Origin: Halorhodospira halophila SL1
GTDB taxonomy: Bacteria > Pseudomonadota > Gammaproteobacteria > Nitrococcales > Halorhodospiraceae
Assembly: GCF_000015585.1 (NCBI RefSeq)
Contig: NC_008789.1
Coordinates: 2,490,001-2,522,000 of the forward strand
DNA: 32,000 bases
Direction: 5' to 3'
Within the stretch, counting starts at the first letter, position 1; each line of letters opens with the position of its first letter. The notes beneath the pieces were generated by a model, which ran no database searches, had not been told where the DNA came from, and was given only the letters and a program-made list of their open reading frames with translations. Below are positions 1-12,995 of this stretch, in pieces. The position numbers and the translations under genes are program-made.

Positions 1-2
1 CC

Positions 3-272
3 CTGGCCGCCTTCTACCTCGATCCGACGAACCTGGAGGGCATGGACAACGCCGCCGTCGAACGGCTGATCGCCGACGGGCTGTGCCGAACCCTGGGCGC
101 GGGGGATCGGGATGCGGACCTGGCCGAGTTGGGGCTCTCGCCCGGCGCCCGACCGAGCGAGATCCGGCGCCGCTACCGCCGCCTGGCCATGCGCCACCAC
201 CCGGACCGCGGCGGCGATACCGCCACCCTGCAGCGGATCAACGACGCTTACCAGCGCCTGATGGCCCGCTGA
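3..272 (+). CDS. J-domain (DnaJ-like) protein, C-terminal part. The reading frame is open to the left window edge, so it is probably 5'-truncated.
   Basis: The C-terminal sequence RRRYRRLAMRHHPDRGGDTATLQRINDAYQRLMAR carries the HPD tripeptide and flanking helices of a J domain. There is no in-frame stop between position 3 and the first ATG at 42. Confidence 0.6.
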   Translation: MAAFYLDPTNLEGMDNAAVERLIADGLCRTLGAGDRDADLAELGLSPGARPSEIRRRYRRLAMRHHPDRGGDTATLQRINDAYQRLMAR

Positions 273-300
273 CCCGCCCCGCGCGGTCCGGCCCATCCAG

Positions 301-1740
301 TCAGCCCCGCGCCGTGGGCCGCAGACGCCCGCGCCCGCGGTCCGGCACCATGCGGCCGAAGTAGAGGAAGCCCAGGGCGAGCCAGGCCAGGGTGATGACC
401 GCGGCCAGGATCAGCACCGGAACCGGCCCGAACTGGTAGATCAAGGGCAGCGACGCAGCGGTGAACAACCCACCGCCGACGATGGGCTCAAAGAGCAGCT
501 GCTTGTAGCCGAAGCTCTCCAGGGCGCCGGAGCGGTTATTGGGGTCGGCCATGCGCATGAGCAGCACGCCGGTGACCGTCACGCCCATCGATTGACCGAA
601 GTCCCCCACACCACGCTCGAACCAGTCGAAGGGGATGACCCGCGGGGCGATCACCACCAGCACGAACAGCGACCAGGCGATCCCCGTGGCGGCGAGCAGC
701 AGGAAAGGCACCAGGTGCTCACCCAGGGCGGTCAGCGACAGGGTGGCCAGGGCGGCCACGATGGTGAAATCCAGTGCCGTGCCGGAGATCCGCGACATGG
801 TCCGTTCCGATACGTACTCGGCGTAGCCGGCCCGGGTGATGAGCACCTGGAGCAATACGCCGCCGAGCATGGCCATGGGGAACAGCGGCACGTGCTGGAG
901 GATCTCGACACCGCCGTCCCGGGCCCAGGTCACCGCCTCGAACCACTGCAGGGCCGAGAGCATGCCCCACCCCAGGACGACCGCCAGGGCCACCAGGCCG
1001 AGGTGGACGGTGAGCGGATCGGTGGTCTGACTCTCCTGCTGGCGGTCGCGGCGCAGCACGTAGAGCTCGCGCTCGCTGAAGCGATCCTGGTCGCCACCCG
1101 GCCCGTGACCGTTCTCCGGGTTGTCGATAATCCCCCGGCGCACCGCCAGGTTGATCAGGATGGTACCGACCACGACGCCACCGACCAGACCCACCGTGGC
1201 CAGCCCCAGGGCCAGGTCCGCACCGGCGGCGAAGCCCAGATCCTCAAAGGTCCCGGCCATCCCGGCGGCCGTGCCGTGGCCACCTTCGAAGCCGATCTCG
1301 ATCAACGCGCCGGCCATGGGGCTGAGACCGAAGACCGGCGTCAACACCAACAGCGCCAGCAGGATACCGACCACGTACTGCCCCCACGCCATGGTCTGCC
1401 CGACCACCACCTGGGGACCGGCCCGCAGCCAGATCTCGCGCACCCCGGGCAACGGCTTGCCGAGAAACAGTGCGGCGAAGACCACGCTGATCAGCAGGCC
1501 GGGGATGGCCGACCAGGTCTGATAGACGTAGTCCGGGAAGAGGCCCGCCCCGTCCTCGAACGGGCTGTCCATGAAACGGCCCAGCACCTCCGGGCCCAGC
1601 AGCAGCCCCGCGGCACCGGCGATGATCGAGGCGGGCAGGAACAGCCTCCGCGCCCAGAGTGTGTAAGCCCGCAGCACCGCGCTGGCCAGGACCAGCAGGC
1701 AGAGCAGCAGGATGGCGAGCAGGATCTCGGCAACGGCCAT
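301..1740 (-). CDS. gltS: Sodium/glutamate symporter family (GltS-like) polytopic membrane protein
   Basis: The 479-aa protein is hydrophobic throughout. The N-terminus (LLAILLLCLLVLASAVLR...) and the central motif EIGFEGGHGTAAGMAGTFEDLGF resemble the E. coli GltS segment ITLSGGHGTGAAW...ERYGF. The call is by recollection of the family, not by a search. Confidence 0.65.
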   Translation of the reverse strand: MAVAEILLAILLLCLLVLASAVLRAYTLWARRLFLPASIIAGAAGLLLGPEVLGRFMDSPFEDGAGLFPDYVYQTWSAIPGLLISVVFAALFLGKPLPGVREIWLRAGPQVVVGQTMAWGQYVVGILLALLVLTPVFGLSPMAGALIEIGFEGGHGTAAGMAGTFEDLGFAAGADLALGLATVGLVGGVVVGTILINLAVRRGIIDNPENGHGPGGDQDRFSERELYVLRRDRQQESQTTDPLTVHLGLVALAVVLGWGMLSALQWFEAVTWARDGGVEILQHVPLFPMAMLGGVLLQVLITRAGYAEYVSERTMSRISGTALDFTIVAALATLSLTALGEHLVPFLLLAATGIAWSLFVLVVIAPRVIPFDWFERGVGDFGQSMGVTVTGVLLMRMADPNNRSGALESFGYKQLLFEPIVGGGLFTAASLPLIYQFGPVPVLILAAVITLAWLALGFLYFGRMVPDRGRGRLRPTARG

Positions 1741-1814
1741 CGTGAGTCACCCCCGTTTGACACGACCCCGCATCCTACGAGGGCCGCGCCCCTCAGGGCC
1801 AGAGGGAGAGGCCC

Positions 1815-2777
1815 TTAGGTACCGGCGGCGAACTGCTCCATCGCCCAGGCGACCCGCTCCTCGGGCGTATGGTGCCGGCGCTCCAGGGCTTCGACGGCGC
1901 GCAGACGGGGCAGCAGCCCGCAACCGTTGGCGATCTGCACCGACAGGCCAGGGCGGGCGTTGAGTTCCAGCAGCTGCGGGCCACGATCACGGTCCAGGAC
2001 CAGGTCGGCCCCCAGGTAACCGAGGCCGCTCATCTCCTGACACCGGGCGGCCAGCTCCAGCAGCGAGCGCCAGTCGGGGATATCGATGGCGTCCAGCGTG
2101 ACCCCGGTGTCCGGGTGCTGATAGACCCGCTGGTCGTACTGCACCGCGTGGGCGCAGCGGCCGGTGGCGATATCCAGCCCGACCCCCACCGCCCCCTGGT
2201 GGAGATTGGCCTTGCCCTGGGAGTCCCGCGTGGAGAGACGCAGCATGGCCATCACCGGATAGCCGAGGAAGACCAAGACCCGGATGTCCGGGATGCCCTC
2301 GTAGGAGAGGGCCTCGAAGCGCGGGTCGAGGCGGATGCGGTCCTCAAACACCGCCGCATCCGGCATGCCGGCCAGCGAGTGCAGACCGGCCAGGGTGTTG
2401 GAGACGTGGCGCTGCAGGTCCTGCAGGGTCAATTCGCGCTCGCCGCTGGTGAGAAAGCGGTCACCGCGGCGGCCGGTCACCACCAGGATGCCCTTGCCAC
2501 CGGCCCCCTTGGCCGGCTTGATGACGAACTCGTCGACCCCTTCGAGACGCTGGGCCAGATCGCGCACCTCGTGCTGATGGCGGATGGTGAAGCGCAGCGA
2601 TGGCGTGCCGACCTGGTGCTCCTCCGCCAACAGCTTGGTACGCAGCTTGTCGTCGACCAGGGGGTAGAGCCGGCGGTCATTGTACTGGCCGATGTAGTGG
2701 ACGTTGCGCCGGTTCATCCCCAGGATCCCGGCCTGCCGCAGGCGCCGGGCGGTACGCCAGTACCGGCGGAGGATCAT
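1815..2777 (-). CDS. Alpha-L-glutamate ligase-like ATP-grasp protein (RimK-related, TIGR02291-type)
   Basis: The N-terminus GILGMNRRNVHYIGQYNDRRLYPLVDDKLRTKLLAEEHQV is characteristic of the alpha-L-glutamate ligase-like family. FVIKPAKGAGGKGILVV and LGADLVLDRDRGPQLLELNARPGL are ATP-grasp motifs. There is no signal peptide. The start overlaps the upstream stop by 4 nt (ATGA at 2774-2777). Confidence 0.85.
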   Translation of the reverse strand: MILRRYWRTARRLRQAGILGMNRRNVHYIGQYNDRRLYPLVDDKLRTKLLAEEHQVGTPSLRFTIRHQHEVRDLAQRLEGVDEFVIKPAKGAGGKGILVVTGRRGDRFLTSGERELTLQDLQRHVSNTLAGLHSLAGMPDAAVFEDRIRLDPRFEALSYEGIPDIRVLVFLGYPVMAMLRLSTRDSQGKANLHQGAVGVGLDIATGRCAHAVQYDQRVYQHPDTGVTLDAIDIPDWRSLLELAARCQEMSGLGYLGADLVLDRDRGPQLLELNARPGLSVQIANGCGLLPRLRAVEALERRHHTPEERVAWAMEQFAAGT

Positions 2778-4315
2778 CCCGAGGCCTCCCGGAAGGCACT
2801 AAAGCGCTTGAGCTCCACCAGCCGGTACCCGGTGTACTGCCCCATGAGCATGATCAGCGCCACCACCACCAGGTTGAGTTCGGGGAAGTTGAAGGTCAGA
2901 TGCTCGGCCAGCGGGCGGCTCATGAGCAGGTACGCGGCCAGTGCCACCACCAGGCTCCCGGTGCCCTGAGTGAGCACCTCGCGGGCCCCCTCCTCCTCCC
3001 AGAGGATGGACATGCGCTCGATGGTCCAGGCGATGATGATGATCGGGAAGAACGCCAGGGTCATGCCGGTGGCAAAGCCGAGCTGATAGCCGAGCAGACT
3101 CAACAGGCCGATCATGAAGACCACGATCACGATGACCGTGGCGATGCGCGCAACCAGCAGCAGGTTCAGCCGCGATAGGTAGCCGCGCAGCAGCAGGCCC
3201 AGGGCGACGATGCCGACGAAGCTGATCAGCCCGGCGACCAACTCCGTCTGCAGGAAGGCCAGAGCGATCAGCACCGGCATGAATGTCCCCGAGGTGCGGA
3301 TACCGACGATGATGCGCAGGAAGACCGTCACCAGGGCGCCCAAAGGCAGCAGGAGCAGGAGCTTGAACGCGGTCTGCTGCTCGATGGGCAGCTGATGCAC
3401 GCTGAGCACGCTCATCACCCCGGACGCCTCCTCCATCTGCGCCAGCTGTTCCGCCGGCACACTCTGGCGGTTCATGGAGAAAGCCACCCGGGCGTTCTGT
3501 CCGCCGAACAGGTCGATGAGCGAGGCCCCGCCGCGGTGCCAGAGCAGAACGTCGTCGTCGACCCCCTGCTGCCCCGTGGTCAGATCGAACGGCAGCCAGT
3601 GGTCGTCGACGAAGATTTCCACGAGCTGCACCGGCGTCTGGTTGCGCCGCCCATCCTCCAACTCCAGGGCCAGCGAGGTCCGCGCCGGCACGCCGGCGTC
3701 GTGGAGCAGCCGCTCGATCACCTCGGCGCGGTCATAGTTATCCAGCAGCAGGTCGGCGGCGCCGTCCCGGCCGGTGCCGAAGGCGTAGATCAGCTGGCGC
3801 GCCAGGCTCTGCGGGCTGGCGGAGGTCTCCCGGGCACGCTCGAGGATCTGCTCGGCGGCGGTCTCCTCCGCCCCGGACCAATTGGGCGAGGCCGGCTCAC
3901 CGGGCGGCTCTTCCAGCGGCCGGTCGCGGTGGTCGGAGCCGTCGGGCGTCGCGTGCACCTTGTAGTAGAGCGTCTGCTCGCCCTCGGCCTCGGCGATCGT
4001 CCACTCGCCGCGGACCACGCCGTCCTGCTCCACGGTGGAGAAGCCGTAACCGGGGGATGCGGTGTGCTCGAGCGAGAGCTCGAACCCCGGGGGACGATCG
4101 GGCACGTTGAAGCTGACCAGCACGGAGTCGCCCTGGGCCTCGAAGTCGATCCGCGCTTCGACCAGCCAGACCGGCTTCTGGGCACCGGGCACGAAGGGCA
4201 CGCCGGTGTCGATGTAGCGCCACGCAGCGGTGGCGGTCCCCACGATGATCAGCAGCGCCACCAGCGCGAAGAAGACCCTACGGGCAGTCACAACCGCACC
4301 CCTCGAGTCCCTCAC
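2774..4315 (-). CDS. Inactive transglutaminase-like domain fused to a C-terminal 7-TM module
   Basis: It has an N-terminal anchor helix (VFFALVALLIIVGTATAAW), a soluble region of about 300 aa, then a densely hydrophobic C-terminal third with multiple helices. I see no cysteine anywhere in the 513-aa translation, so a Cys-His-Asp transglutaminase triad is impossible. It sits between the DUF785 protease and the ATP-grasp gene, as in the known conserved triad. Confidence 0.75.
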   Translation of the reverse strand: MRDSRGAVVTARRVFFALVALLIIVGTATAAWRYIDTGVPFVPGAQKPVWLVEARIDFEAQGDSVLVSFNVPDRPPGFELSLEHTASPGYGFSTVEQDGVVRGEWTIAEAEGEQTLYYKVHATPDGSDHRDRPLEEPPGEPASPNWSGAEETAAEQILERARETSASPQSLARQLIYAFGTGRDGAADLLLDNYDRAEVIERLLHDAGVPARTSLALELEDGRRNQTPVQLVEIFVDDHWLPFDLTTGQQGVDDDVLLWHRGGASLIDLFGGQNARVAFSMNRQSVPAEQLAQMEEASGVMSVLSVHQLPIEQQTAFKLLLLLPLGALVTVFLRIIVGIRTSGTFMPVLIALAFLQTELVAGLISFVGIVALGLLLRGYLSRLNLLLVARIATVIVIVVFMIGLLSLLGYQLGFATGMTLAFFPIIIIAWTIERMSILWEEEGAREVLTQGTGSLVVALAAYLLMSRPLAEHLTFNFPELNLVVVALIMLMGQYTGYRLVELKRFSAFREASG

Positions 4316-4339
4316 GCCGCGGCGGACCGCCCGGCCCGC

Positions 4340-5266
4340 CTACTCGTCCTCGCCGTCATCCTCGTTCTCCCCCGCCTCGTCATCGTCACCGTTCTCGTCC
4401 CCGTCGTCGTCTTCGGTCTCCTCGTCGTCCTCGTCCTCGTCCTCCGGAATCTCCTCGACATGGTCATCGGCGTCGATGGCGTCGAGGTCGTCGTCATCCG
4501 GGGTCATGGGCTCGGTGGCGCGCTCCAGGCCGACATCCACCACGGCCACGTCGCGCAGCACATCGCGCCCGATCAGCACCGGAAAGGTCAGGTGGCTGCG
4601 GTCGGTCAGGGTGAATTCGGCCACCTCGGAGAACTCACCGATGGTCACGTGCAGTTCCACCACCGGCCGAGATTCCTCCCCGGAGGCCTGGACGATGCTG
4701 GCGCTGCGCACCTTGGGACGCTCGATGGCGATCCGGCCATCGCCCTCCGGGTGGATCATCTCGAAGCGAACCCAGGGGTCGCCGTCGCGTTCGAACTCTT
4801 CGATCTCGCGGGCATCCACGGAGGAGGTCGAGGCACCAGTATCGATCCGGGCATCGAAGAGCAGCCCGGGCGGATCCAGCTGGAGCTCCTCAATCTCGCC
4901 GAAGACGAGCATGCCGTCGGCACTGAGCTCCTGATCGGACTGGAGCTGGTCGTCGGGACAGCTCGGCTCCGGGCAGTCCGACTCGCCCAGATCAACGGGG
5001 CGCAGCGGCACCAGCCAGCGGTTCGCCGTCTGTGCCTCCATGGCACCGGCGATCCGCGCCAGCTGCGCCTCGCGCGCTACTCGTTGGGACTGCTCGTGGG
5101 CGTCGGCCAGGGCCTCCAGACGCTCATCCACGCCGTCGAAACGCTGTTCGAAGCGCTCCGTCTCAGCTTCTTCGATGAGCAGGTAATCCGGGGCCGCACA
5201 GCCGGCAGTGAGCAGCAGACCACCCGCCGCCAGGATGGCGGCGCGCGGCGAATTCATCACGGCCAT
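4340..5266 (-). CDS. Retropepsin-like protease of the DUF785 family (annotated 'ATP-dependent zinc protease', RimB-like). Predicted lipoprotein with an Asp/Glu-rich C-terminal tail.
   Basis: The core ARIDTGASTSSVDAREIEEFERDGDPWVRFEM...FTLTDRSHLTFPVLIGRDVL matches the DUF785 signature, including a D-T-G-A aspartic-protease motif. MAVMNSPRAAILAAGGLLLTAGC is a signal peptide with a lipobox. I prefer the start at 5266 (AAGAGG lies 10 nt upstream). ATG at 5257 is an alternative. The track start at 5371 is probably an artefactual extension that overlaps the upstream gene. Confidence 0.8.
   Translation of the reverse strand: MAVMNSPRAAILAAGGLLLTAGCAAPDYLLIEEAETERFEQRFDGVDERLEALADAHEQSQRVAREAQLARIAGAMEAQTANRWLVPLRPVDLGESDCPEPSCPDDQLQSDQELSADGMLVFGEIEELQLDPPGLLFDARIDTGASTSSVDAREIEEFERDGDPWVRFEMIHPEGDGRIAIERPKVRSASIVQASGEESRPVVELHVTIGEFSEVAEFTLTDRSHLTFPVLIGRDVLRDVAVVDVGLERATEPMTPDDDDLDAIDADDHVEEIPEDEDEDDEETEDDDGDENGDDDEAGENEDDGEDE
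4343..4504 (-). repeat. Low-complexity GAN-codon tract encoding the acidic tail of the protease
   Basis: The last 54 residues are TPDDDDLDAIDADDHVEEIPEDEDEDDEETEDDDGDENGDDDEAGENEDDGEDE. By my count 36 of 54 are D/E, and there is no K or R. The plus strand reads as gtc/ctc/atc runs. Confidence 0.8.
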
Positions 5267-5814
5267 ACCCTTCGGACCTCTTGGGTTGCGGTTTCGTTCC
5301 CGAGCTCGTCGCACGCCTCGCAGAGGATCCGGGCAATCGCTGAGACCGCTTCCGGATCGCAGGTCGGACACTTGCGGCGCACCACCACACCGGCATTCCA
5401 GGCGGCGTCGCGCCAGCGTTCGCTCTCCGCGGCGGCGGGAAGGTCCGCAGGCAGGTCTTGAAGGAACAGCTTCTGCTCGATCGCCTCGGCGCGAAGCTCG
5501 GCGGCGATCAGCTGCTTGCGAAGCTCGTGGTTGTCATCCGCCAGATCGCGGGGCGGATGCAGCTTGAGGTGACGCCGCAGGGCCCGGAGCGGGGCGATGA
5601 CCTCTCGATCCCACTCCTGGCCCCGGCGAATGGCACCTTCTGCACTGGAGACACCGAGCCGCCCCCGCCCCTCCAGGCCGCTCCAGACGGCGGCCAGGAG
5701 GAGCGATATGGACAGCCCGTAACGGGCCTGGAGCTTGAGGCATGCGGCCTCAACGCCCGGCCTGGCGTAGATATCCTCGGCGAAGCGCCAAAGCCGCTCG
5801 GACTCATCCAACAA
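5257..5814 (-). CDS. TIGR02444/DUF2390-like conserved hypothetical protein
   Basis: The N-terminus LWRFAEDIYARPGVEAACLKLQARYGLSISLLLAAVW resembles the TIGR02444 family signature as I recall it. It is co-directional with and abuts the protease gene. Confidence 0.55.
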   Translation of the reverse strand: MLDESERLWRFAEDIYARPGVEAACLKLQARYGLSISLLLAAVWSGLEGRGRLGVSSAEGAIRRGQEWDREVIAPLRALRRHLKLHPPRDLADDNHELRKQLIAAELRAEAIEQKLFLQDLPADLPAAAESERWRDAAWNAGVVVRRKCPTCDPEAVSAIARILCEACDELGNETATQEVRRVWP

Positions 5815-5848
5815 CCCGTTGCCTCCAGCAGACCGGCCCAGGGCCGGC

Positions 5849-7243
<1,395 letters not shown>

Positions 7244-7245
7244 GT

Positions 7246-7545
7246 TCAGCCGTCCTCCTTCTTGCTGCTCTTGAACATGTCGAGCATCCGCTCGGTGACG
7301 ACGTAGCCGCCGACGGCGTTGGCGGCGCCGAGCAGCACGGCGACAAAGCCGATGGCCTGCTCCAGCGGCGTCTCAGCGACACCGAGAGCGACCATGGCAC
7401 CGACGACGACGATACCGTGGATGAAGTTCGAACCGGACATCAGCGGCGTATGCAGGATGACCGGCACCCGGGTGATGACCTCGTAACCAGCCACCGCCGC
7501 GAGCATGAAGACGTACAGTGCGACGAGCCCGCCGACCTCGATCAT
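7246..7545 (-). CDS. pntAB: NAD(P) transhydrogenase subunit alpha part 2 (membrane part)
   Basis: The 99-aa hydrophobic protein contains HTPLMSGSNFIHGIVVVGA. It lies between pntAA and pntB, and its start overlaps the pntAA stop by 4 nt. Confidence 0.9.
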   Translation of the reverse strand: MIEVGGLVALYVFMLAAVAGYEVITRVPVILHTPLMSGSNFIHGIVVVGAMVALGVAETPLEQAIGFVAVLLGAANAVGGYVVTERMLDMFKSSKKEDG

Positions 7546-8681
7546 GACTTACCTCCTTCCAGGCGCTCCCGGGTGGCCCCGTGGCGAACCTGGCCGTCGT
7601 GGGTCAGACAGGTATCCGCGATCACCTGGTCGTCCCAGTTCAGAGTCAGGTCCCCCTCCTCGACCATCAGCGTGAGCAGGTTGTACAGGTTCTTGCTGTA
7701 CATCTCGCTGGTGTGGACGGCGACGCTGGCGGGGAGATTCTTCGGGCCGACCACCAGGACGCCGTTGTGGGTGACGTCCTTACCGGCCTTGGTGACCTCG
7801 CAGTTGCCACCGGTCTCGGCGGCCATGTCGACAATCACCGTACCACCGCCCATGCGCTCGACCGTCGCCTTGTCGATGATCTTCGGCGCCGGCCGACCGG
7901 GGATGGCCGCCGTGGTCACCACCACGTGGGCGTTGGCGATATGGTTGGCCAGCACCTCGGCCTGCTGCTGCTGCTCCTCGGCGGTCAGCTCACGGGCGTA
8001 CCCGCCCTCACCGACGGCCGAAACGCCGGTATCGATGAACTTGGCGCCGAGCGACTCCACCTGCTCCTTGGTCTCGGGGCGCACATCGTAGCCCTCGACC
8101 TGGGCACCCAGGCGGCGGCAGGTGGCGATGGCCTGCAGGCCGGCCACACCGGCGCCGACGACCACAGCCTTGGCCGGGCGGATGGTACCAGCCGCGGTGG
8201 TCAACATGGGGAAGAAGCGCGGGGAGCGCTCGGCGGCGATGAGCGCGGCCTTATAACCGGCGGCAGCCGCCTGGGAGGAGAGGGCGTCGATGGACTGGGC
8301 GCGGGTGATCCGCGGCACCAGCTCCATGGCGAAGGAGGTCACCTTGCGCTTGCACAGCGTCTGGATCCGCTCGTCGCCTTCGTGGGGCGTCAGGAAGCTG
8401 ATGACCACCGCCCCTTCCTTCAGCTGGCCGGTCTCCTTGACGCTCAGCGGCTGCACGCTGAGCAGGACATCGGCCTCCTTGAGCAACTCGTCGCGCGACT
8501 GGACGATGCGAACACCGCCGGCTTCATAATCGGCATCATCGAACCCGGCGCCCTCACCGGCTCCCGTCTCCAGGAGCAGCTCTACGCCGAGTTTGCCGAA
8601 CTGCTTCAGGACCCCAGGGACGAGCGCGACACGCCGCTCGCCGGGCCGGGTCTCCTTCGGCACGGCAACCTTGATGGCCAT
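7542..8681 (-). CDS. pntAA: NAD(P) transhydrogenase subunit alpha part 1 (dI, NAD(H)-binding)
   Basis: The N-terminus is MAIKVAVPKETRPGERRVALVPGV. A Rossmann motif VVGAGVAGLQAIATCRRLGA is present. A GGGGGA Shine-Dalgarno-like sequence lies about 8 nt upstream of the ATG. Confidence 0.95.
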   Translation of the reverse strand: MAIKVAVPKETRPGERRVALVPGVLKQFGKLGVELLLETGAGEGAGFDDADYEAGGVRIVQSRDELLKEADVLLSVQPLSVKETGQLKEGAVVISFLTPHEGDERIQTLCKRKVTSFAMELVPRITRAQSIDALSSQAAAAGYKAALIAAERSPRFFPMLTTAAGTIRPAKAVVVGAGVAGLQAIATCRRLGAQVEGYDVRPETKEQVESLGAKFIDTGVSAVGEGGYARELTAEEQQQQAEVLANHIANAHVVVTTAAIPGRPAPKIIDKATVERMGGGTVIVDMAAETGGNCEVTKAGKDVTHNGVLVVGPKNLPASVAVHTSEMYSKNLYNLLTLMVEEGDLTLNWDDQVIADTCLTHDGQVRHGATRERLEGGKS

Positions 8682-8880
8682 GGTTTGATCCCCCGTTTGC
8701 GGCAGTTGTTAGCCGTTAGTTGGTCCGTGACGACTGCCCGGGCAGGCCTGAAGCCCGACCCGGATCACGGCGCACGGGTATCGCCGCGCGCCCAGCCGAA
8801 CGGGCAGATGCTAGCGAATCGGCCCCGGGGTGTGAAGCGGCGCCGCGGTGCGGCAAAACCGCAACCCCGTTCGCAGACTG

Positions 8881-8910
8881 TTGTCAAGAGGCGTGCCAAC
8901 CGGCTATAAG
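8881..8910 (+). promoter_or_regulatory. Candidate sigma70-type promoter for the HNH gene
   Basis: TTGTCA (8881-8886) is separated by an 18-nt spacer from TATAAG (8905-8910), about 35 nt upstream of the ATG at 8946. This is a pattern match only. Confidence 0.3.
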
Positions 8911-8945
8911 TGGGCAAGCCCTAGCCTGACACCGGGGGGTGGGCA

Positions 8946-9530
8946 ATGCTCGAACATCGCATATTACGCACCGACATATCCGGCATGCCGCTGGAGTGGG
9001 TCGGCTTCGAAGAGGCGGTCCGCTACTACTACCTCGGCCAGGTGGCCTACGCCTGCGGTAGCACCCTTTATCGGGTCCGGGGCGGGTACAACTCGGCCAC
9101 CGGACGACGATCGTTCGTCGACCTGAACTCGATCATCGCCACCGAGGGAACCCGACAGGCATCGCTCAAGGGTCGTCCGGGCTACACGCCGCCCCTGAAC
9201 AACCCGACCCTCTTCCGCCGCGACGCCCACCTCTGCCTCTACTGCGGCCGCCGCTTCCGCACCTCCGACCTCTCTCGCGATCACGTCACCCCGGTCAGCC
9301 GCGGTGGTGCCAACACCTGGAACAACGTGGTCACCGCCTGCAAGCGCTGCAATAACCAAAAGAGCGACCGGACTCCGGAGGCGGCGGGCATGGAGCTGCT
9401 CGCGGTGCCCTTCACCCCGACCCACGCGGAGTACGTCTACCTGCAGGGCCGGCGGATCCTCGCCGACCAGATGGAGTTCCTGAAGTCGCACTTTCCCCGC
9501 CGCAGCCCGCTGCGGGTGCGCGAGCCCTAG
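8946..9530 (+). CDS. HNH endonuclease family protein
   Basis: CLYCGRRFRTSDLSRDHVTPVSRGGANTWNNVVTACKRCNNQKSDRTP carries the CxxC...H...N...CxxC HNH zinc-finger nuclease motif. It is preceded by an uncharacterised N-terminal region of about 95 aa. Confidence 0.85.
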   Translation: MLEHRILRTDISGMPLEWVGFEEAVRYYYLGQVAYACGSTLYRVRGGYNSATGRRSFVDLNSIIATEGTRQASLKGRPGYTPPLNNPTLFRRDAHLCLYCGRRFRTSDLSRDHVTPVSRGGANTWNNVVTACKRCNNQKSDRTPEAAGMELLAVPFTPTHAEYVYLQGRRILADQMEFLKSHFPRRSPLRVREP

Positions 9531-9554: not shown

Positions 9555-11993
9555 TCAGTCCTGCTGATCGATGCGCCGGCGCTCCTCGTAGAGCAGGTAG
9601 TCCTGCAACCTTGGCAGCCGGTGCTCGTCGCCGATGGCGCGCTCACCACCGATGACATGACCGGCACCGGGGTGGCCGGCGGGGCTGCGATCGGTGAGCC
9701 AGTCCCAGGTCATCTGCCCCGGGTAGATCAACCCGACCTCAGTCCACTCCACGTCGGCATCGTCCAGATCGCCCTCCGTGTGCGTGGCCACGATGTCGGC
9801 CTCCGGCGCATCCGCCGCTTCCTCGGCCAGGGCGAGCGTCTGCGGCAGTGAGACCCGGTGCCAGCGCTGGCCCACGCCCTCGTGAACGGCAAAGGCCACG
9901 TCGTAGACCCCGCCCGGCTCCAGGGTGTGGCTATCGGTGGGCTCCGGCGCCTCGAGCGAGCGGGTCAGGCGCACCCGCCAGGCACCGTCCTCATAGCCGC
10001 CAGCGGCGCGGATCGCCCCACGGCTCCCATCGGGCTCCTGCAGGAAGCGCTGGGGCAGGACGTCGCCGTCCTCCCAGTGGTGGTCCGGATCGAAGTCGGT
10101 GGCGTGCCCCTCGCTCAGGTAGTAGAGATCGTCCTGGTCATAGGCACCATCCAGTAGCCGGTCGCGCTCCAGGGCCCGGAAGCCCGCCTCGTCCGGGTCG
10201 TACATCCAACGGGGCTGATCGGCCTCGTCGTCCCAGTTGTCGGTGAACATCCCCCGCCCCTCGGAGCTGTGGCGGTACTCCAGGACGTAGCCGTTGTCGG
10301 CGTAGCCCAGCGGGTGGGAACGGTGGGCGCGCCACTGCCAGAGGTCGAGGAACTCGCCCCGCTCGCGCATGGCCTCGAGCTCGGCCTCATCACGCACGTC
10401 CTGCCAGTCCGCGCCACCGTTGTCCCCGTCCTCCCGCGATTGGGGGATGTACTTGCGCACGTCCGAGCGCCCCAGGGTCTCGCCCAGGTGGGGATGGGCC
10501 TCGACCTCCTCGGACTCGGCGGCCCCGGTGAGCCCGCGCATGCCCTCGTGGGCGGTCATGAAGCCGCCGTAGCGATCGAGCCCCAGATCCCCATCGTCGA
10601 GGAGCATGGAGATGCGATCCTCGTAGAGGCCGTGCTCATCGGGCTCCGGGCCGCCACTGCCGTATTGCACCCACTCGCCGCCGGTCCCGCGCCCCTCCAC
10701 CTCGTAGATCCAGTATTGGTGGTACCAGGACGGGGCCTCGGTGGCGAACTCGTAACGGATCTGGATCTCGTCATCGTTGTAGACGGCGCCCACGCGCAGG
10801 GTGCGCTCGAGTTCACCGCGCGGCGGGATGTAGACATTCCGTCCCGGGTCCGATGCCAGGGGCTGCTCCGGGTCCAGGCGGACGTCCAGCAGCGCCGAGG
10901 CCGCCCGCCAGAGCCGGACGCTGTCGAACAGTCCGCCCTCCAGGTCCACATGGGCGAGTCCGGCGCTGCGGTACAGGTGCGCATCCGGGGCAGCGGCCTC
11001 CAGCGCCTCACTGTGGGAGAAGGGCACCACCGGGTCGTTGGTGCCGTGGATCAGCAGCAACTCCGGGTGGTAGTCCGACCAGTCGTGGCGGGAGGGATCC
11101 AGCTCGTCCAGCGCCTCGCGGTACGCCGCGGGGATCTCCGCCAGGTCGTCATCGAAGGCCTCCGGGTCGTCGTTGACCAGCAGATCCACCAGGGCGGCTG
11201 CCTCCTCGCCCAGCGCCGCCCGTTCGGCGGTGATATCTGCCTCGGGATCGTCCAGGCGGCGTTCGGCGATGCGCTGCATCCACTCCCGGTCGTCCTCGTC
11301 CACCCGGGCCGCCAGCGCCTGCAGGAGGACCCAGCGGCTTTCCGGGCGGGGCTCCGGGTCGTCCCGGGCATCCGCCAGCGGGTCATGACCGGTGGTCACG
11401 TAGCGCAGCCACGCCTCGATGTCGTAATAGCCGCCAATCAGGGCGACGAACTCGACCCGCCGACGCAATTCGTCATCGGCGGTGGCGAGCAGCACCGGGC
11501 CGCTCATCAGGCTCAGGGTGCTGACCCCCAGGGGCAGACCGCGGCTCGCCTCCCGGTTGGCCATATGGCGCACCGCATCAGCCACGTCGTCGCGATTCTC
11601 CGGCCCCCAGCGCAGCTCACGGAGCTCCTCTACCTCGGGCACCAGGACCCGGTAACCGACCCGGGTCAGGCTCTCGGCCATCTCCACCAGTCGGCGATCG
11701 TCCTTGCCCTGCTCGGTCAGCCCGTGGATCAGCACCAGGTTCCCGCGGGCCTCGCCGTCGGGCCGGTAGAGGTCGGCCTCGCGCTCACCCTGGCCCTTGT
11801 CGTAGCGGACGGAGGTCACTTCCGGATCACCGCCGCGATCCTGCAGGCGGGTCTTTTCGTGGCCCTCGGCGCCTAGGTCGCTGAGCAGTAGGGCGGCCTC
11901 GTACTCCTCATCGAGGGCAGCGCAGCCGCTGGCCATCAGGGCCGCCGCGGCACTGGCAGTGAGCAAGGCGTGGGGACGGGGGAGTCGGGACAC
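9555..11993 (-). CDS. Predicted lipoprotein with an N-terminal alpha/beta-hydrolase fold fused to a C-terminal ethylbenzene-dehydrogenase-like (EB_dh, haem-binding/CBM9-like) domain
   Basis: The proposed start is GTG at 11993, with GAGG 6 nt upstream, giving (M)SRLPRPHALLTASAAAALMASGC (signal peptide plus lipobox). Hydrolase-type segments are LVLIHGLTEQG and LLLIHGTNDPVVPFSHSE...AGLAHVD. The C-terminal half has IQIRYEFATEAPSWYHQYW, DRISMLLDDG and LDLWQWRAHRSHPLGY, which resemble EB_dh family motifs. The track ORF extends to 12575 only as an antisense overlap with the neighbouring gene. Confidence 0.7.
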   Translation of the reverse strand: MSRLPRPHALLTASAAAALMASGCAALDEEYEAALLLSDLGAEGHEKTRLQDRGGDPEVTSVRYDKGQGEREADLYRPDGEARGNLVLIHGLTEQGKDDRRLVEMAESLTRVGYRVLVPEVEELRELRWGPENRDDVADAVRHMANREASRGLPLGVSTLSLMSGPVLLATADDELRRRVEFVALIGGYYDIEAWLRYVTTGHDPLADARDDPEPRPESRWVLLQALAARVDEDDREWMQRIAERRLDDPEADITAERAALGEEAAALVDLLVNDDPEAFDDDLAEIPAAYREALDELDPSRHDWSDYHPELLLIHGTNDPVVPFSHSEALEAAAPDAHLYRSAGLAHVDLEGGLFDSVRLWRAASALLDVRLDPEQPLASDPGRNVYIPPRGELERTLRVGAVYNDDEIQIRYEFATEAPSWYHQYWIYEVEGRGTGGEWVQYGSGGPEPDEHGLYEDRISMLLDDGDLGLDRYGGFMTAHEGMRGLTGAAESEEVEAHPHLGETLGRSDVRKYIPQSREDGDNGGADWQDVRDEAELEAMRERGEFLDLWQWRAHRSHPLGYADNGYVLEYRHSSEGRGMFTDNWDDEADQPRWMYDPDEAGFRALERDRLLDGAYDQDDLYYLSEGHATDFDPDHHWEDGDVLPQRFLQEPDGSRGAIRAAGGYEDGAWRVRLTRSLEAPEPTDSHTLEPGGVYDVAFAVHEGVGQRWHRVSLPQTLALAEEAADAPEADIVATHTEGDLDDADVEWTEVGLIYPGQMTWDWLTDRSPAGHPGAGHVIGGERAIGDEHRLPRLQDYLLYEERRRIDQQD

Positions 11994-12104
11994 GGGAGAC
12001 CTCGCTATCGATGGAACCGGGCACAGGAGACGCTTGAGTCGAAGGCGCCTATTCTGCACGTTGTCCTCCGGGCATCCGACCCCCGAGCAGCAGGAGTGCA
12101 TGCC

Positions 12105-12995
12105 ATGGATCTGCAACGCACCATCGAGACCGCCATCACCGAGGCCACCGGCGAACCCTTCGGGCCGGCCCGCCGGGGCGGCGCCGGAGGCGGCTGCATC
12201 AACGACGCGTTCGCGCTCAGCGATGAGCACCGGCGTTTCTTCGTCAAGGTCAACGATGCCGCCGGGGCCGAGCTGTTCGAGACGGAGGCCGACGCCCTGC
12301 GCGAGCTGGTCGCCGCCGAGGCGCTGCGGGTGCCGCGCCCCGTCGCCCAAGGTACGCACGGCGGACAGTACTTCCTGGTGCTGGAGCATGTGGACCTCTC
12401 CGGGCGGGGAGATACCGCCGGCTACCGGCGCCTGGGGGAGGGGCTGGCGGCCCTGCACGGGGTCACCGCCGCGGCGCACGGCTGGCACCGCGACAACTTC
12501 ATCGGCGCAACCCCGCAGCCCAACGGCTGGCACGACGAGTGGATCCCGTTCTTGCGCGAGCGGCGGCTCCGCCATCAGCTGCGCCTGGCCGCCGAACGCG
12601 GCGCGGGCCGACGCGTGATCGACGCCGGTGAGCGTCTGGCTGCGCGGCTGGAGGCACTCTTCCCCGGCTACACGCCGCCGCCCTCACTGCTGCACGGCGA
12701 CCTGTGGGGCGGCAATGCCGGTTTCGCCCGCGACGGCGCACCGGTCATCTACGACCCGGCCACCTACTACGGGGACCGCGAGACCGACCTGGCCATGACC
12801 GAGCTCTTCGGCGGCTTCCCGGCGTCCTTCCACGAAGGCTACGACGCCGTCTGGCCCCGGGACCCGGGATACGCCACCCGGCGGGACCTCTACCAGCTCT
12901 ACCACGTCCTCAACCACTTCAACCTGTTCGGCGGCATGTACCTGAGCCAATCGCAGCGCCTGATCGACCGGCTCCTCGCCGAGATCGGCGGCTGA
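12105..12995 (+). CDS. Fructosamine/ketosamine-3-kinase family protein
   Basis: LLHGDLWGGNAGF and DPATYYGDRETDLAMTELFGGF are the family's kinase motifs. The start is ATG at 12105, with AGGAG 9 nt upstream. The track start at 11970 would leave almost no divergent promoter space. Confidence 0.85.
   Translation: MDLQRTIETAITEATGEPFGPARRGGAGGGCINDAFALSDEHRRFFVKVNDAAGAELFETEADALRELVAAEALRVPRPVAQGTHGGQYFLVLEHVDLSGRGDTAGYRRLGEGLAALHGVTAAAHGWHRDNFIGATPQPNGWHDEWIPFLRERRLRHQLRLAAERGAGRRVIDAGERLAARLEALFPGYTPPPSLLHGDLWGGNAGFARDGAPVIYDPATYYGDRETDLAMTELFGGFPASFHEGYDAVWPRDPGYATRRDLYQLYHVLNHFNLFGGMYLSQSQRLIDRLLAEIGG

Follow-up and report, generated by a model that had tools for sequence, protein, structure and literature searches.

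The window analysed here is a stretch of 32,000 nt from the genome of Halorhodospira halophila SL1 (contig NC_008789.1, positions 2,490,001 to 2,522,000). Within its positions 1815–5814 four open reading frames (ORFs) were confirmed, all of them on the minus strand, and three of these form a compact cluster which is identified below as an rloABC operon. The gene rloA (4340..5266) encodes a retropepsin-like aspartic peptidase of 308 aa, counted from the ATG at 5266, which is predicted to be a lipoprotein and matches the Pfam family PF05618 (1.6e-33). It is followed by rloB (2774..4315 for the longest ORF), coding for a membrane protein with the domains PF14400 (1.6e-50) and PF14402 (2.6e-102), and by rloC (1815..2777), whose product is an ATP-grasp ligase scoring 427.8 bits against TIGR02291 (cut-off 314) and matching PF14397 (8e-87). 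The fourth ORF, a DUF2390/TIGR02444 gene, is located upstream of rloA. A preceding interpretation made from the DNA letters alone, here called the sequence-only reading, had proposed families for these genes, and every one of its assignments held in profile searches of Pfam and NCBIfam.

The genes follow each other closely. The ATG of rloC lies over the stop codon of rloB in an ATGA overlap, and the stop codon of the DUF2390 gene and the ATG of rloA overlap by 10 nt, both as described in the sequence-only reading. Its 24 nt gap between rloA and rloB has to be revised: this is the distance from the rloA stop to the first GTG of the rloB ORF, and the likely start of rloB is GTG 4291, with a GAGGGG ribosome-binding site 7 nt upstream and orthologues of 505 aa. 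With this start the gap is 48 nt. The GC content at third codon positions (GC3) is 0.80–0.92 in the called frames of the cluster genes, in a genome of approximately 69% GC. These values, together with the A-B-C order in 77 of 80 genomes, show that the ORFs are not due to chance. A scan of positions 1–9000 for promoters and terminators found nothing above shuffle expectation inside the cluster, and paralogues of rloA, rloB or rloC were not found within the 32-kb window.

In a scan with one genome per species, at least 599 genomes encoded a relative of RloB, and the best 80 loci were analysed. In 77 out of these 80, rloA, rloB and rloC are adjacent and co-directional, and the other three end at a contig edge. 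Thus, the triad is a genuine conserved module, as had been supposed from the window. The nearest RloB homologue among those compared comes from an Ectothiorhodospiraceae metagenome-assembled genome (MAG; 94% identity), and the RloB proteins of H. halochloris and H. abdelmalekii show 75% identity to that of the window. In public records, RloB homologues carry the name 'gonadoliberin III', which is clearly spurious, or 'UUP1 family membrane protein' (P0006, P0054, P0072, P0115, P0038, P0052).

The sequence-only reading regarded the triad as uncharacterised. This is outdated, since the system was named rloABC in 2025, with structures, an in-vitro substrate, phenotypes and epistasis, in Pseudomonas aeruginosa, where it forms the operon PA14_41690/41710/41730 (Lormand et al., mBio 2025, PMC12239564). 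There, the RloA proteins are secreted and dimerise as retropepsins, with a substrate channel of positive charge (crystal structures 9G58 and 9G59); in vitro they cleave reporters with 8 or 10 consecutive alpha-Glu residues and not those with 6 or fewer, and the substitutions R114A and R137A abolish both activity and complementation (PMC12239564). The delta-rloA1-3 mutant does not grow in salt-free LB and shows defects in shape, biofilm and beta-lactam tolerance, and it is rescued by delta-rloB or delta-rloC (PMC12239564). As candidates for the physiological substrate the authors name polyglutamylated proteins or free poly-alpha-glutamate (PMC12239564).

NCBIfam returned the names 'retropepsin-like aspartic peptidase RloA/RloA2/RloA3' and 'osmotic stress tolerance membrane protein RloB' here. 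The identification with rloABC is carried by the Pfam and NCBIfam matches, the full-length match of RloB, 9G58 and 9G59 as the nearest structures and the A-B-C gene order. The locus is the rloABC operon of H. halophila, orthologous to the P. aeruginosa operon, and we are somewhat more inclined than not to see it work, by analogy, through the mechanism transferred from Pseudomonas.

Properties of RloA, RloB and RloC

For rloA the ATG at 5266 is the start, with 'MAV/MAL' conserved in the Halorhodospira orthologues. GTG 5371 as an alternative start (ORF 4340–5371) was rejected because these orthologues begin at MAL/MAV before the signal peptide. Residues 1–22 constitute the predicted signal peptide, in which the lipobox LTAG precedes Cys23 (5198..5266, minus strand, sequence MAVMNSPRAAILAAGGLLLTAGC). 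The N-terminus reads MAVMNSPRAAILAAGGLLLTAG followed by this Cys and has an Arg in the n-region and a hydrophobic core; the Thr at –3 of L-T-A-G-C is non-canonical and tolerated. A strict lipobox filter was passed by 70 of the 80 operon-linked RloA homologues, and by eye the remaining ten show lipobox-like S/T/G-A/G-C motifs. The mature N-terminus is conserved as C-[SA]-x-D-x-Y in an alignment of 70 homologues, with S, A or T after the anchor Cys in 67 of them and Asp in none. A linker of about 95 residues leads from the anchor Cys to the protease domain (4910..5197, minus strand; CPEPSCP at 4955–4975). In the 70 aligned homologues the linkers comprise about 95–120 residues and close with CPxxxCP, the cysteines of which are 80–90% conserved and probably form a periplasmic disulfide. 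Since the lipobox Cys and CPxxxCP are conserved across orthologues, the N-terminus is translated and exported. This protein-level conservation lies upstream of any alternative start; the signal peptide is thus translated, and the refuting case named in the sequence-only reading, a true start downstream of the lipobox, does not apply.

The retropepsin catalytic domain follows (4517..4909, minus strand), with its DTGA motif at 4832–4843 (residues 142–145). The closest relatives in the Protein Data Bank (PDB) are the RloA crystal structures 9g58 (1.2e-17) and 9g59, and 2pma. The window protein has 'ARIDTGA' against 'AKLDTGA' in 9g58/9g59, its segments 'sRPVVEL' and 'LTDRS' match those with R114 and R137 of Pseudomonas, and in the alignment to 9g58 the Pseudomonas residues K46, R114 and R137 apparently are kept as R, R and R. 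A zinc metalloprotease, which the old name 'Zn_protease' would imply, was rejected, since no metalloprotease family was matched and both fold and active site are of the aspartic type. The label of PF05618 is 'Zn_protease' in the Pfam copy searched and 'RimB-like' in newer precomputed annotations. Lipobox signal peptide, DTGA motif and closest structures all agree with the exported aspartic retropepsin-type protease of the sequence-only reading, and RloA is predicted to be an exported, lipid-anchored peptidase of this type. It scored 81, 89 and 111 bits against the NCBIfam models for RloA, RloA2 and RloA3 (cut-offs 280, 250 and 210, respectively); because all three scores stay under the cut-offs, it is a homologue that is unassignable to one Pseudomonas paralogue. 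Against the RimB model NF052261 it reached 54.9 bits (cut-off 200), and it possesses a signal peptide, unlike the cytoplasmic RimB.

Net charges in the mature RloA amount to –15 for the linker, –15 for the catalytic domain and –37 for a C-terminal acidic tail of 58 residues (4343..4516, minus strand; longest E run 2); that of RloC is +5. Within the set of 80 loci the tail occurs only in the window and at locus L001. All Halorhodospira orthologues examined share it, among them those of H. halochloris, of H. abdelmalekii and of a MAG from the genus, its start being conserved as TPDDDDL[DE]A[IV]xADxHVE, and the Asp/Glu tails of Halorhodospira RloA comprise 45–60 residues (L081 4982–6004; L082 5029–5964; L084 3849–4790). 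Other genera have no acidic tail, and some Cellvibrio loci possess Pro/Gln/Lys-rich tails instead. The tail is unlikely to be a substrate of RloA, as no run of Glu in it exceeds 2 and the Pseudomonas enzyme left DDDDEEEDDD uncut; it may serve solubility in a halophile or act as a pseudo-substrate. In five Cellvibrio-type operons (L004 6410–6868, L005 6403–6894, L008 6508–6849, L011 6420–6875, L022 6398–6844) RloA lacks the catalytic D-T/S-G and reads ARINTNAAN, ARISTNVAN, ARVSTNVAN or AKITPQLSY, although lipobox, linker and the remainder of the domain are intact. This looks like a conserved pseudo-protease and suggests either a non-catalytic role or a reliance on unlinked paralogues.

RloB is matched over its full length by NF052267 (RloB) with 332.9 bits, under the 900-bit 'exception' cut-off. 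The window protein contains no Cys, as do 73 of the 80 homologues, the other seven having one each, and no alignment column reaches 20% Cys. The middle protein is thus not a Cys-dependent transglutaminase, in line with the sequence-only reading. In the AlphaFold2 (AF2) model, which has a predicted local distance difference test (pLDDT) score of 82, an N-terminal transmembrane (TM) helix is followed by a beta-sandwich, then by a transglutaminase-like core and finally by a helical bundle. The ectodomain was assigned from this model and from its fold match to 3isr, a transglutaminase-like putative cysteine protease (Foldseek E 7e-9). According to positive-inside counts, the ectodomain faces the periplasm and the C-terminus is cytoplasmic. 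The 7-TM bundle and the periplasmic soluble domain proposed before are retained, and the total of TM helices is corrected from 7 to 8 (1+7). RloB is an inner-membrane protein composed of a TM helix, a periplasmic beta-sandwich with a dead transglutaminase fold, and a 7-TM bundle.

This bundle (2831–3385, minus strand) is unusually rich in invariant charges at the face predicted to be cytoplasmic. R334, R377, R390, E433, R434, E440, E479, E501 and R504 are invariant, and E441, E442 and E446 nearly so. Most of the invariant charged residues are situated at predicted cytoplasmic helix ends, including the motif AWTIERMSILWEEEG (2987..3031, minus strand), located where the sixth TM helix is predicted to end on the cytoplasmic side; this motif consists of invariant or near-invariant columns in 80 homologues. 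These charges argue for an active role of RloB rather than that of a passive anchor, and they do not separate a conduit from a sensor.

RloC has neither a TM or other hydrophobic segment nor a signal sequence, as was expected for a ligase acting in the cytoplasm. Its glycine-rich Lys loop, K87-x-x-K-G-x-G-G-K-G, and its E-x-N metal site, E271-L-N273, show no variation among 25 homologues. The protein is a cytoplasmic ATP-grasp amidoligase. RimK structures were matched in the searches with RloC at E values of 6e-4 to 0.04. Reading its specificity from solved ATP-grasp enzymes was given up, as only generic motif-level matches were obtained.

Neighbouring genes in Halorhodospira and elsewhere

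Upstream of the triad, the DUF2390/TIGR02444 gene (5257–5814, minus strand; PF09523 3.9e-29; TIGR02444 89 bits, cut-off 48) follows the genes pntAA, pntAB and pntB (8681–5849, minus strand), the end of pntB being separated from it by 34 nt. Its product shows 99% identity to an H. halophila protein. The gene is probably co-transcribed with the rlo genes here. A tblastn search with the neighbouring genes of the window found no DUF2390/TIGR02444 gene beside rloABC in 79 of the 80 loci, the only match being L001. Elsewhere, DUF2390 genes occur without rlo genes, beside pntAB in Alkalispirillum or an ABC-F ATPase in Pseudomonas and Halomonas. DUF2390 as a fourth component of the module was therefore rejected, and the gene that the sequence-only reading had noted in front of the triad is a lineage-specific neighbour, which accompanies rloABC only in the Halorhodospira lineage. 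Its AF2 model is all-alpha with 8 helices (pLDDT 93.6), and no fold relative was found for it in the PDB (best E 2.3). Among the invariant residues are W9, Y16, C25, Q29, R77, R80, E106 and E110. Literature discussing DUF2390/TIGR02444 was not found.

On the other side, a Glt_symporter-like gene of the ESS family (301..1740, minus strand; PF03616 1.1e-14; 54 bits, cut-off 26) begins 74 nt after rloC. Its product is 100% identical to an H. halophila 'sodium/glutamate symporter'. In every Halorhodospira locus such a gene is located directly after rloC. In H. halochloris and H. abdelmalekii (L081, L084) its start even overlaps the called rloC ORF, by 34 nt in one and by ATGA in the other (L081 8516–9958; L084 7543–8982), and rloC is called with a C-terminal extension in both (343 aa in H. 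halochloris, 382 aa in H. abdelmalekii). Close homologues of the symporter in Aquisalimonas, Halomonas and Alkalilimnicola were not found adjoining rlo genes, and as a general partner of rlo the gene was rejected outside Halorhodospira. It is an operon extension at the level of the genus Halorhodospira. Its presence hints at a link to glutamate, and it could also be read as inherited synteny.

Further upstream, an HNH endonuclease gene (8946–9530, plus strand) is divergent to pntAA, a placement which is kept in Halorhodospira and Alkalispirillum. The adjacent gene (9555–12575, minus strand) encodes a protein of 1006 aa that has an ethylbenzene-dehydrogenase-like (EB_dh) domain. Both genes appear to have no relation to the rlo module.

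Function of the module and alternative explanations

Compared to the rloABC operon of P. aeruginosa, the window shows the same three families in the same order with tight co-directional junctions, an exported DTG retropepsin with basic residues at the apparent K46, R114 and R137 positions, a Cys-free pseudo-transglutaminase joined to a 7-TM bundle, and a cytoplasmic TIGR02291-type ATP-grasp protein. The differences are mainly found in RloA. The profiles of the Pseudomonas proteins comprise 159–178 positions and have no linker, whereas the window RloA matches them only from residue 116 or so onward, is a predicted lipoprotein with a CPxxxCP linker of about 95 residues and a 58-residue acidic tail, and has a shorter and less basic flap. 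Furthermore, the window has the symporter-like gene downstream and no RloA paralogue within its 32 kb. The words lipoprotein and lipobox are absent from PMC12239564; lipid anchor, linker and CPxxxCP define a subtype of RloA outside the description given there.

A second related system is RimK-RimB(-RimA), the module for polyglutamylation of ribosomal protein S6 in Pseudomonas (PMC4741518, PMC11957791), in which an ATP-grasp ligase is likewise paired with a retropepsin-like peptidase that cleaves poly-alpha-glutamate, and the Rim module has been proposed as the evolutionary source of rlo (PMC12239564). In contrast to the window, where the peptidase is exported and the ligase stays under the RimK cut-off, the Rim system is wholly cytoplasmic, has no membrane component and targets RpsF.

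A likeness by analogy only exists to the poly-gamma-glutamate systems of Bacillus. In PgsBCA/CapBCA with PgdS/CapD, polyglutamate is made at the membrane, exported and cut by a dedicated extracytoplasmic hydrolase, with roles in osmoprotection. These systems differ by their gamma linkage, a Mur-ligase-like PgsB and the absence of a retropepsin, and no homology to them was detected here. Peptide-ligation systems composed of an ATP-grasp protein, an inactive transglutaminase-7TM protein and a DUF785 peptidase were reportedly predicted by Iyer, Abhiman, Burroughs and Aravind in Mol Biosyst in 2009, and PF14397, PF14400 and PF14402, which match here, reportedly originate from the work of Iyer et al. 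2009.

Under the rloABC explanation, RloC would synthesise an anionic peptide at the expense of ATP, with poly-alpha-L-glutamate or a polyglutamylated carrier as the most likely product; that it polymerises glutamate is weakly suggested at the level of its sequence. RloB may then translocate this product or present it at the periplasmic face, the invariant charges clustered where its 7-TM bundle is predicted to face the cytoplasm being the likely entry or docking site and the dead transglutaminase domain a likely peptide-binding platform. Dimers of RloA, tethered by the lipid anchor and the linker of about 95 residues, would cleave the product, and if it were made and left uncleaved, the envelope would be expected to fail under hypo-osmotic stress. 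Both the cleavage of polyglutamate (polyE) by RloA and the toxicity of an uncleaved species depending on RloB and RloC are transferred here from Pseudomonas by analogy. In Halorhodospira, the symporter-like gene could supply or recover glutamate. That a product is made inside, handled by the 7-TM protein and processed outside had already been proposed from the window, and it agrees with the published working model for Pseudomonas.

Several observations weigh against this explanation. RloC lies far under the RimK family cut-off (TIGR00768, 37.6 versus 143.4 bits), so that the term 'RimK-like' of the sequence-only reading is valid at the superfamily level and not at the family level. The profile of RloC matches D-Ala-D-Ala ligase (0.005), RimK (0.013) and TTLL7 (0.03) about equally, and its likeness to RimK being this remote and unspecific, the sequence does not establish a specificity for glutamate. 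Pfam places RloC in ATPgrasp_ST, 'sugar-transfer associated' (PF14397), and a product of RloC is reported in no organism, nor was later literature naming one found. Compared with 9g58, the window RloA has a flap that is some 9 residues shorter and devoid of the basic residues present in the Pseudomonas flap, and its catalytic domain is acidic (net charge –15), for which reasons its specificity may differ. The DTG-less RloA of Cellvibrio implies that proteolysis by the operon-encoded copy is not always required. Finally, the 7-TM bundle of RloB has neither a sequence match nor a significant Foldseek match in the PDB, and export by RloB is purely our inference.

The placement of RloC in ATPgrasp_ST, together with a similarity to D-Ala-D-Ala ligase about as high as that to RimK, would suit a system that modifies the envelope instead of making free polyglutamate. 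RloC would attach an amino acid, glutamate or a different one, to one specific envelope precursor, for which lipid-linked intermediates, peptides related to peptidoglycan and proteins of the membrane or the periplasm are candidates; RloB might serve as scaffold or flippase, and RloA might trim the modification and thereby tune cell-wall synthases or hydrolases. The Pseudomonas phenotypes, namely cell shape, beta-lactam sensitivity and osmotic lysis, go well with such a role, and the authors themselves raise peptidoglycan homeostasis (PMC12239564). In Shewanella, disruption of an RloB homologue alters the output and size of membrane vesicles. We nevertheless consider an envelope modification of this kind rather unlikely, because RloA needs at least 8 contiguous Glu residues in vitro and the polyE-binding residues are required in vivo, and because the triad has no conserved neighbour of the glycosyltransferase or Mur type in the 80 loci, where the tblastn search with the neighbouring genes of the window matched L001 only, or in the gene tables inspected for Halorhodospira loci. 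More improbable appears a sensor, in which RloB would act as a 7-TM receptor, binding a peptide ligand in the periplasm through its dead ectodomain and controlling RloC allosterically. In such a case RloA would make or destroy the ligand, and nothing would cross the membrane via RloB. Pseudo-enzyme ectodomains often serve as binding modules, the invariant charges of RloB are concentrated at its predicted cytoplasmic face, a possible docking site for RloC, and a catalytically dead Cellvibrio RloA would fit a ligand-binding or partner role. However, the epistasis is explained most simply by a toxic species that RloB and RloC produce together, since loss of rloB suppresses the loss of the proteases in the same way as loss of rloC, and RloC has no recognisable signalling output domain.

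With regard to the extent of the operon in Halorhodospira, a unit of five genes, DUF2390-rloA-rloB-rloC-gltS-like, possibly transcribed together with pntAB, would be suggested by the 10-nt DUF2390/rloA overlap, which is kept in the window, L081 and L082, by the overlap of the gltS-like start with the called rloC ORF in L081 and L084, by the mere 34 nt between pntB and DUF2390, and by the fact that no convincing internal promoter or terminator was found. Yet outside the Halorhodospira lineage the DUF2390 and symporter genes are absent from rloABC loci, both occur elsewhere without rlo genes, a 133-nt gap separates DUF2390 and rloA in H. abdelmalekii, and a conservation within one genus may be inherited synteny; such a unit is therefore very unlikely. 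A further reading sees in the Halorhodospira rlo module a closed cycle of glutamate and polyglutamate across the inner membrane, which we think improbable. Here, RloC would polymerise cytoplasmic glutamate, and the polyanion exported by RloB would be an osmotically active, cation-holding buffer in the periplasm, comparable to osmoregulated periplasmic glucans. The lipid-anchored RloA would set the chain length, its acidic tail acting as a pseudo-substrate brake, and the translationally coupled Na+/glutamate symporter would recover the released glutamate. If this were true, an extreme halophile would use the rlo system for rapid adjustment to salinity shifts.

Summarizing, the sequence-only reading is largely right in its interpretation, yet this had already been published in 2025, and what this locus adds are the local subtype features. 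The published work on Pseudomonas ties the rlo system to antibiotic tolerance, biofilm formation and osmotic survival. The central question of the system is what the ATP-grasp protein makes and how the 7-TM pseudo-transglutaminase handles this product. The locus does not answer it and is of modest interest, because it offers no better access to the question than Pseudomonas does. Its contribution consists of comparative clues. As a rule, the operon-linked RloA is a lipoprotein whose long linker contains a motif that probably forms a disulfide, and some lineages retain a catalytically dead copy of it. In one halophile genus, furthermore, a symporter-like gene has been joined to rloC, which lends independent, though weak, support to glutamate as the currency of the rlo system.

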